Part shown: piece after piece, positions 34,612-36,302 of the stretch | How the letters are laid out: each line of letters opens with the position of its first letter | Numbering within the stretch: the stretch's first letter is position 1 | Assembly (NCBI RefSeq): GCF_054482525.1 | Contig: NZ_CM137006.1 | DNA length: 64,000 bases | Strand: one strand, 5' to 3' | The notes under the pieces: model-generated | The model's database searches: none | What the model saw: only the letters and a program-made list of their open reading frames with translations | What the model was told of the DNA's origin: nothing | Program-made: the position numbers and the translations under genes

Positions 34612-34851
34612 AACAGTTTCCTCCAGAGTTAATGTATATGATGTGTAATGTTATATTGTAACACATAAAAAAATGCAACAACTCTTAGGAGACAAGAGAA
34701 TAGTTCTCTCAGGTGTGCTTATCTATCTTATTGAAATAAAATAAATTATGTCGATGATTTGAGGTTGATGACAAACGAAACATAACCTAATGCGATCTGT
34801 GTATGCCGGATAAGGCGCTTGAACTGAACCCCAAAACCTGGACAGTTTCAG

Positions 34852-35574
34852 TTAACCGGCTTTTTGATGCTCAGTCCGGTATTCTACCGGACTGAGTCCC
34901 CCAAGACTGAGTTTTATTCTTTTTTGATTCCAGTAAGTTATGTATTCGTTAACGGCATTTTCCAGCTCTTCTACATTTCTGTAGTCCCGGCGATAGTACA
35001 TTTCTTCTTTCAGGTGACCAAAGAAGTTCTCCATTACCGCATTATCAAGGCAGTTGCCCTTGCGCGACATGCTCTGCACTAACCCTCTGTCCGCCAGGGC
35101 GGACTGATAACTTTTTATCCGGTAATGCCATCCTTGATCACTGTGGAGCAGCGGTTTCTCCCCTTCAGCAAGGCTTTCCAGCCCCTTATTTAACATCCGC
35201 TTCACCAGCTCCTCTGTAGGCCTGCAGGCCGTTTCCCACGCCACGATTTCCCCGTTAAACAAATCAAGTATCGGGGACAGGTACAGTTTTTGTCCGCCAG
35301 CCCTGAATTCGGTGATATCTGTCACCCATTTCTCACAGGGAGCTTCCGCTTTGAACTGCCGCTGAAGGATATTTTCTGCAGCGAGTCCCATATTTCCCCG
35401 GTAAGACCGGTATTTCTTCAGGCGCACAGGAGACTTCAGGCCGAGCTGTTGCATCAGTTTTCGCACCGTTTTGCCACTGAACTTAAGACCTCTTTTCTGA
35501 AGCTCACAATGGATCCGCCGGTACCCATAACATCCCCGGTGTTCATGGAAGATGGAGGCTATGAGCTGTTTCAC
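34852..35574 (-). CDS. IS3-family transposase OrfB (DDE catalytic domain), made as OrfAB fusion by -1 frameshift
   Basis: 240 aa from first Met; DDE integrase-like motifs; frame open upstream to the slippery site at about 35722-35728. Confidence 0.8.
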   Translation of the reverse strand: MKQLIASIFHEHRGCYGYRRIHCELQKRGLKFSGKTVRKLMQQLGLKSPVRLKKYRSYRGNMGLAAENILQRQFKAEAPCEKWVTDITEFRAGGQKLYLSPILDLFNGEIVAWETACRPTEELVKRMLNKGLESLAEGEKPLLHSDQGWHYRIKSYQSALADRGLVQSMSRKGNCLDNAVMENFFGHLKEEMYYRRDYRNVEELENAVNEYITYWNQKRIKLSLGGLSPVEYRTEHQKAG

Positions 35575-35678
35575 ATCAGCATACTTGTCCTTAGCCTTCT
35601 GCAGTGACAGCTGGTAGTACAGCGTGCTTCTGGCCAGCCCTGCAGCCTTTAACAGGTCAGACTGGCAGTGTCCGCACC

Positions 35679-36209
35679 TCAGGCTCCGGATGACTTTCGT
35701 TTTTTCTCCAGCTCCTGGCGCTTTTTTTCCAGGAGATGCTCCTGCATGGCTTTCAGATATGCATTTTCTGCGCGAAGATAACGCAGCTCATTCTTCATCT
35801 CTTCCGGCGTCATGTTTGCCTCGTTTTCATGGGTATCATCAGAACGGGTCATGCTTTTCTCCTTCCTGCGCCTGATAAAGGCCTCATTACCAGATTTGCG
35901 GTAGCCTTTTATCCAGTTTTTAACCGTGTTGTGGCTGGGAATGTTAAACCGGGCAGCTACCCGGGGTAGAGACTCAGAATGCCCGAGAGCATAAAGAACC
36001 ACGCAAAGTTTATCTTCAGGAGAATAGCTACGCTTGTGTCTGCAATCCAGTGCCCGAGGACCGTGAAGAAGAAAAAGATTAATCCAGTGTGAGAGGCTGG
36101 TGTGAGAAAGTTGAAAGAGTTTTGCCGTAGAAATGATGCCTGCATGACCAGCCAGGTAATGATTTACAGCGGCAAGTTTTACTTCAAATGAATGTTTCAT
36201 AAACTGCAC
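35679..36209 (-). CDS. IS3-family transposase OrfA (HTH)
   Basis: 176 aa with HTH N-terminus and leucine-zipper-like C-terminus. Confidence 0.8.
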   Translation of the reverse strand: MQFMKHSFEVKLAAVNHYLAGHAGIISTAKLFQLSHTSLSHWINLFLLHGPRALDCRHKRSYSPEDKLCVVLYALGHSESLPRVAARFNIPSHNTVKNWIKGYRKSGNEAFIRRRKEKSMTRSDDTHENEANMTPEEMKNELRYLRAENAYLKAMQEHLLEKKRQELEKKRKSSGA

Positions 36210-36302
36210 CTTCAGATGTCAGATTATGTCCAACATTTGGGGTGCAGTTCAGCTCGCGCCGCATCCGGCAGGGATAACGCGTACTTTGTCGGCAATATGA
36301 AG

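Follow-up and report, generated by a model that had tools for sequence, protein, structure and literature searches.

An IS1397 copy at the apex of a solitary REP palindrome between msrQ and zinT

The spacer between the genes msrQ and zinT, in a 64,000-nucleotide stretch of contig NZ_CM137006.1 (assembly GCF_054482525.1; the whole of this stretch is referred to as the window), is interrupted by an insertion sequence (IS) of 1432 bp. The element is almost certainly an intact, and probably transposition-competent, copy of IS1397, a member of the IS3 family, which sits in the apex of a solitary repetitive extragenic palindromic (REP) sequence that lies 33 nt 3′ of msrQ and precedes zinT by about 210 nt. 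The element, its ends and the two neighbouring genes are located as follows, where PGAP stands for the NCBI Prokaryotic Genome Annotation Pipeline.

34820..36251, minus strand: IS1397, complete 1432-bp copy; full-length 100% identity to IS1397 annotated by PGAP, with boundaries placed by aligning the flanks, without gaps, to the empty site of K-12
36227..36251, minus strand: left inverted repeat (IRL), preceding orfA, with the minus-strand sequence TGAACTGCACCCCAAATGTTGGACA; member of inverted-repeat pair I2, with an end motif unique in the window to both ends
34820..34844, plus strand: right inverted repeat (IRR), TGAACTGAACCCCAAAACCTGGACA reading inward on the plus strand; pair I2 and end-motif search
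34817..34819, no strand: target-site duplication, copy 1, GCT; a single GCT stands here in K-12
36252..36254, no strand: target-site duplication, copy 2, GCT; sequence and K-12 alignment
36303..36938, minus strand: msrQ, the upstream neighbour, with its stop codon 33 nt from the REP; open reading frame list, K-12 comparison and PGAP
33961..34611, minus strand: zinT, the downstream neighbour, with its start codon 209 nt beyond the end of the IS; open reading frame list, K-12 comparison and PGAP

The terminal inverted repeats are 25 nt long and imperfect, with 21 of 25 positions complementary (84%), and the element runs from TGAAC to GTTCA, in agreement with the hallmark of IS3-family ends, namely imperfect inverted repeats with 5′-TG...CA-3′ termini. 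A 16-nt end motif is found at only two places in the window, which are the two ends of the IS, against a chance expectation of 0.11. The duplicated GCT, at 3 bp, falls within the 3-4 bp duplication of the family, and the transposase is read from the minus strand, as are msrQ and zinT. An initial annotation, made from the sequence alone, had described a 1432-bp element with imperfect terminal inverted repeats, flanked on both sides by GCT and placed between msrQ and zinT, and each of these points is confirmed by the coordinates given above. The interval that it had assigned, 34796-36285, extends past the two ends of the element (34820-36251) into the chromosome, by about 24 and 34 nt.

Over its full 1432 bp the DNA of the element shows 100% identity to copies to which PGAP gives the name 'IS3-like element IS1397 family transposase'. 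Strain SCU-102 is identical across the IS locus (100%), and PGAP annotates the same msrQ-IS-zinT arrangement there. The length is that of the published IS1397, which we take to be 1432 bp, and nine other uninterrupted IS1397 copies are likewise 1432 bp long. In 1,707 of 5,426 complete E. coli genomes, IS1397 is represented by a copy that spans at least 80% of its length, and the richest genomes have it in at least 40 places. We found nothing that contradicts the identification as IS1397; the term 'IS1397-like', used initially, was right about the relation and too cautious in its wording, since 100% identity to the named copies makes the element IS1397 itself.

The coding capacity of the element is that of a two-frame IS3-family transposase, with these parts.

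35679..36200, minus strand: orfA, 173 aa, a helix-turn-helix DNA-binding protein, the product made when no frameshift occurs; open reading frame list, with ATG at 36200 as in the PGAP start, and Pfam HTH_28 and HTH_Tnp_1
35721..35727, minus strand: slippery heptamer A AAA AAG, a programmed −1 ribosomal frameshift site; it lies in the orfA frame and a −1 shift gives the 449-aa fusion
34852..36200, minus strand: orfAB transposase coding sequence, 1349 nt and 449 aa, split into two pieces that the −1 frameshift joins, with its stop at 34852; reconstruction, NF033516, Pfam and DDE residues

The open reading frame list has orfB on the minus strand with its end at 34852, and the proposal that orfA and orfB are joined at A AAA AAG is borne out, as the heptamer is in the orfA frame and a −1 shift there yields a 449-aa DDE transposase. 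Database proteins that carry the name IS1397 family transposase match the reconstructed fusion exactly, and at the same locus in SCU-102 PGAP marks the two-piece coding sequence as 'programmed frameshift'. Against the NCBIfam model NF033516, 'IS3 family transposase' (transpos_IS3), the fusion scored 387.2 bits (cutoff 160) and covered the profile from 1 to 369 of 369. Matches in Pfam are to rve (PF00665, 75.7 bits, full length), rve_2, rve_3 and HTH_21, together with helix-turn-helix domains at the N terminus. The residues of the DDE core are D295, D355 and E391, with 35 residues between D355 and E391, and K398 follows seven residues past the glutamate. The model score, the rve core and the DDE residues support the assignment to the IS3 family that had been made from the letters of the sequence. 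No stop or frameshift was seen in orfAB relative to active IS1397. In the assembly collection, 13,393 blocks list the exact orfA protein. Inside orfB, at its 3′ end, two 12-nt arms pair perfectly around a loop of 3 nt (CTCAGTCCGGTA gaa TACCGGACTGAG, 34870-34896); this inverted repeat encodes ...LSPVEYRTE... and is not followed by a run of T.

The sequence on either side of the element consists of the two halves of a REP.

34801..34819, plus strand: left half of the split REP, comprising a GTAT foot (degenerate GTAG), the arm GCCGGATAAGGCG and part of the loop; K-12 alignment, copy number and REP31
36252..36270, plus strand: right half of the split REP, comprising the rest of the loop and the arm CGCCGCATCCGGCA; inverted-repeat pair I8, arm-pattern search, K-12 alignment and copy number

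When the element and one GCT are removed, the sequence becomes TGCCGGATAAGGCGCTCGCGCCGCATCCGGCA, which aligns without gaps to the msrQ-zinT spacer of K-12 MG1655, where the empty site reads TGCCGGATAGGGCGCTCGCGCCACATCCGGCA and differs from the restored site of the window by two substitutions within the palindrome. The split arms form inverted-repeat pair I8 (34804-34818 and 36256-36270, 87% complementary), and the restored palindrome, GCCGGATAAGGCG-CTCG-CGCCGCATCCGGC, has 13-nt arms, an AA/GC internal mismatch and an intergenic position. REPs are defined in PMC3333891 as imperfect palindromes of 30-40 nt with a characteristic internal mismatch, located outside genes, and the restored site agrees with this definition in palindrome, mismatch and location. 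On the minus strand it reads TGCCGGATGCGGCG-CGAG-CGCCTTATCCGGCATAC, with arms identical to those of the canonical E. coli REP31, given as TGCCGGATGCGGCGTA/AACGCCTTATCCGGCCTAC in Additional file 13 of PMC1525189, whereas the loop and one base of the foot differ. In 5,425 of the 5,426 genomes, a 34-nt query spanning the restored palindrome has at least 40 matches, and the palindrome therefore belongs to a highly repeated family. Other strains carry the exact restored site uninterrupted, and the searches with the palindrome and with the empty site returned the same records. Both the REP-type palindrome proposed at the outset and its presence in the K-12 spacer, where it is intact at the empty site, are thus upheld. 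In the window itself, the 13-nt REP-arm pattern is found only at the arm at 36257-36269, a count that is not above chance by itself (0.6 expected), and the window is otherwise poor in this type of REP. The K-12 record lists no REP or repeat_region features in the 48 kb around the site.

The same alignment bears on where the mobile unit ends. IS1397 copies elsewhere align for 20-55 nt past the ends of the IS (query 374-1886 against the IS at 401-1832), which would be expected if the REP-like half-sites were the extended ends of a mobile element of about 1.46 kb that carries its own palindrome arms. We give this virtually no chance, and it is refuted by the alignment to the empty site of K-12: the palindrome is intact without the IS in K-12 and in 4,938 genomes, the arms (of GCCGGAT and GCCTGAT types) and the loops vary by site and face either way with respect to the IS, and each site has its own duplicated 3-4 bp. 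As the flanking arms and loops differ among sites, the arms do not travel with the element, and the unit that inserted between msrQ and zinT is IS1397 with the boundaries given above.

The target preference was examined across a sample of IS1397 sites that comprised two from DNA matches (trmL-cysE and caiE-caiF) and ten from a look-up of the exact orfA protein that was blind to the flanks. Both ends were readable in 11 of the sampled copies, which together with the window gave 12 distinct sites; among the ten best-scoring DNA matches, nine represent the trmL-cysE site and one caiE-caiF. At all 12 independent sites the element occupies the centre of a REP palindrome, of the GCCGGAT or GCCTGAT type. 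The duplication measures 3 bp at five sites, the window included among the 12, and 4 bp at six, with one ambiguous case (AA, 2-3 bp). Relative to the asymmetric REP, the element is oriented one way at seven sites and the other way at five. No second REP lies within 200 nt at six of the 12, so that about half of the targets are solitary REPs and half are in clusters. The ambiguous case is L019 (GCA_963575375.1, OY754371.1), in which the IS is preceded by GCGGCGTAA and followed by AAACGCC, giving a perfect duplication of 2 bp (AA) or one of 3 bp with a single mismatch, while the other 11 are clean at 3-4 bp. The IS lengths of 1791 bp and 970 bp obtained at L013 were discarded as artefacts of a 100-N assembly gap.

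Insertion in the centre of REPs reproduces the published behaviour of IS1397, which is described as inserting specifically into REP sequences of E. coli (PMC1525189; PMC3184786); Additional file 13 of PMC1525189 draws an IS1397 copy of CFT073 at GCCGGATGCGGCGTG/AACGCCTTATCCGGC, and the same article cites experimental evidence (Wilde et al. 2003) for the choice of target as a property of the transposase itself. The targeting of REPs, or palindromic units, by IS1397, stated at the outset, is therefore supported by the 12 sites and by the literature. According to PMC1525189, several IS families target REPs, and the element could in principle be another of them, such as ISKpn1 or IS621, or a further IS3-family member that came to lie in a REP by chance. 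We consider this very improbable. The DNA is 100% identical to loci named IS1397 by PGAP and the protein bears the IS1397 name; IS621 belongs to the IS110 family (PMC1525189), and its insertions are described in PMC3184786 as lying on the 3′ side of the REP and not within the inverted repeat, whereas the element here encodes a DDE protein with an rve domain and lies at the REP apex. A chance landing in a REP is excluded by the REP-centre location at 12 of 12 sites.

With the identity as IS1397 and the target in place, the remaining question is whether this copy can move. It looks functional: the two inverted repeats, the slippery heptamer and the DDE residues are intact and orfAB is complete, and transposase WP_100190663.1 is annotated at msrQ-zinT, trmL-cysE and caiE-caiF, three different loci, which argues for recent movement. 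By analogy with other IS3-family elements, ribosomes translating orfA would slip by −1 at A AAA AAG with low frequency and so produce OrfAB; as in IS911, IS2 and IS3, OrfAB would then bind the inverted repeats and copy the element out as a double-stranded circle, which would be pasted in at the apex of a REP through cuts staggered by 3-4 bp. OrfA alone would presumably regulate or modulate this activity, as in the biology of the family.

The distribution of the insertion could be read differently. Among the complete genomes, the msrQ-zinT site is filled by the IS in 16 of 5,426, which include PCN033 and O166:H15 strains, and is contiguous in 4,938. The 16 share flanks that are 99.4-100% identical, which indicates that at this locus the insertion was inherited and not newly made, and the insertion is a lineage marker. 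A structurally complete yet inactive relic, passed on vertically, would give the same pattern. However, the intact ends, heptamer, reading frames and catalytic residues, the occurrence of identical copies elsewhere in the genomes of other strains, and the existence of genomes in which IS1397 reaches 40 or more copies all stand against an immobile relic, which we regard as unlikely.

Several points nevertheless weigh against an intact, probably active IS1397 in a typical REP, or qualify it. The name IS1397 follows from PGAP naming, length and behaviour, and it is the intactness of the copy together with identical copies at several loci that suggests transposition activity. No significant frameshift-stimulating RNA structure was found 3′ of the heptamer, where the 106-nt fold was no better than shuffled sequence (z = −1.0). 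The minimum-energy fold does contain a 7-bp stem, CUCCUGG...CCAGGAG (35712-35735, minus strand), whose loop holds the slippery heptamer; given the result with shuffled sequence, this stem may be due to chance. A simple consensus scan of the circle junction (IRR+AGC+IRL) gave only a weak promoter-like match, TGAACT-17-CATAAT (8/12), and since this lies entirely within IRL and is present in the resident copy too, there is no evidence of a promoter created by the junction. With regard to the target, the conserved GTAG foot was not found, the foot being GTAT (3/4) in both the window and K-12 (on the other strand ATAC as opposed to CTAC), which makes the target a slightly degenerate REP; this leaves IS1397 targeting, which is at the apex, unaffected. 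There is also no second REP within 200 nt of the msrQ-zinT site, and the target is thus a solitary REP.

The position of the insertion raises the possibility of an effect on the neighbouring genes. The arms of the REP are now 1.4 kb apart, and transcripts of msrPQ would therefore no longer be able to end in that hairpin; REP hairpins protect upstream mRNA from 3′ exonucleases. Downstream, the 209 nt between the IS and the start of zinT are colinear with K-12, so the control region of zinT is kept, including a palindromic stretch at about 34644-34666 that we take to be the Zur operator. On the minus strand, a search for terminator-like sites between orfB and zinT gave no match, which makes read-through conceivable. 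The native DNA between the end of the IS and zinT also carries a promoter-like TTGTCA-18-CATAAT (10/12; 34725-34774, minus strand), which lies in sequence colinear with K-12 and was thus not created by the insertion.

On this basis, the insertion could matter to the host by lowering the stability of msrPQ mRNA, by sending read-through from the IS into zinT, or both. The common direction of the IS, msrQ and zinT, the separation of the REP arms, the protective role of REP hairpins and the negative result for terminator-like sites on the minus strand would all favour such an effect, but the sequence upstream of zinT is colinear with K-12, and the 16 carriers among 5,426 genomes give no sign of selection; judged from the sequence, we see a small chance that it is real. 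The more specific expectation, that altered msrPQ mRNA stability or Zur-independent read-through into zinT might change a zinc or oxidative-stress phenotype in the carrier lineage and that the insertion would consequently not be neutral, appears less probable still.

When compared with known systems, the element shows no difference from the published IS1397, described by Bachellier, Clement, Wilde, Hofnung and colleagues in 1997-2003 (cited in PMC1525189): it shares 100% DNA identity with named copies, the −1 frameshift between orfA and orfB, the REP centre and the 3-4 bp duplication, and the REP that it occupies has a GTAT foot and stands alone, instead of being part of a bacterial interspersed mosaic element (BIME), a cluster of paired REPs. 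ISKpn1, an IS3-family element of Klebsiella pneumoniae, likewise targets palindromic units, and the specificity of both elements is attributed to their transposases (Wilde et al. 2003, as listed in PMC1525189); it differs in the type of palindromic unit and in host, whereas the element at msrQ-zinT bears the IS1397 name at 100% identity. IS621, ISPpu9 and ISPa11, of the IS110/IS1111 families, resemble it in having REP insertion sites (PMC1525189, PMC3184786, PMC12288879). These families are described in PMC11187229 as using DEDD transposases guided by a seeker RNA, with ISEc21 inserting without target duplication, whereas the element studied here is of the DDE, IS3-family type, with inverted repeats and a 3-bp duplication, and lies in the apex, not beside the palindrome as IS621 does. 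With IS911, IS3, IS2 and IS150 it shares the TG...CA repeats, OrfA, an OrfAB made by a −1 shift on A AAA AAG, the DDE residues with K/R seven residues past the glutamate, and the 3-4 bp duplication, and the copy-out/paste-in route is presumed to be common to them and IS1397. Those elements have little target specificity, in contrast to the REP-specific IS1397, and neither a frameshift stimulator nor a junction promoter was demonstrable in this IS1397 copy.

REP targeting by IS1397 has been known in the literature since the 1990s, and the description of the locus as a textbook example proved apt, as this is an ordinary IS1397 insertion in a REP apex. The msrQ-zinT locus is a clean example of published behaviour, of little importance beyond annotation but useful as a lineage marker, and it also serves as a positive control for reading from sequence alone, in which boundaries, duplication, slippery site, target and family were all correct. 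The survey of 12 sites confirms the specificity in modern genome data, with about half of the targets solitary REPs and with both orientations used, and brings no new principle.

Beyond zinT, the window differs from K-12 and from SCU-102. Between zinT and serU, yodB (K-12 b1974, a putative cytochrome b561) is absent at 33738-33959 according to BLAST against K-12, about 995 bp of K-12 sequence being replaced by about 222 bp that have no K-12 match; PGAP has no gene there in SCU-102 either. Of the tRNA-Ser gene serU, the 3′ part is present, at about 33226-33291 (context 33180-33300), from the anticodon stem to CCA, and unrelated AT-rich sequence stands in place of the 5′ half. ARAGORN called no tRNA at this fragment, and SCU-102 has an intact serU. 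A scan of 33000-37000 against Rfam returned nothing above threshold, with a sub-threshold match to Plastid-psbl-rps4 at 33237-33288 on the tRNA-Ser fragment. The fragment resembles a partial tRNA direct repeat of the kind that marks the distal end of an island or prophage inserted in serU; the inserted DNA would then lie at lower coordinates. Four tRNA genes (Met-CAT, Lys-TTT, Thr-TGT and Gly-TCC) lie at 6523-6832 on the plus strand, 1-3 nt apart, and this array may belong to the element integrated at serU.

Finally, IS1397 is itself a target of another element. In the copy at L014, ISEc21 (IS110 family, 1374 bp) interrupts IS1397 exactly between the codons of D355, the second catalytic aspartate, and Q356 (HSD/QG). 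ISEc21 is located at 3562-4935 in L014, at 3772-5145 in L015 and at 1501-2874 in L024, L025 and L026, and IS911 and two further IS3-family transposase genes carry it between the same two codons. The targeting of the HSDQG motif by ISEc21, guided by seeker RNA, has already been published (PMC11187229), and IS1397 and IS911 are further examples of its target; L015 spans the stretch of LT903847.1 that is given in PMC11187229 as the source of ISEc21.

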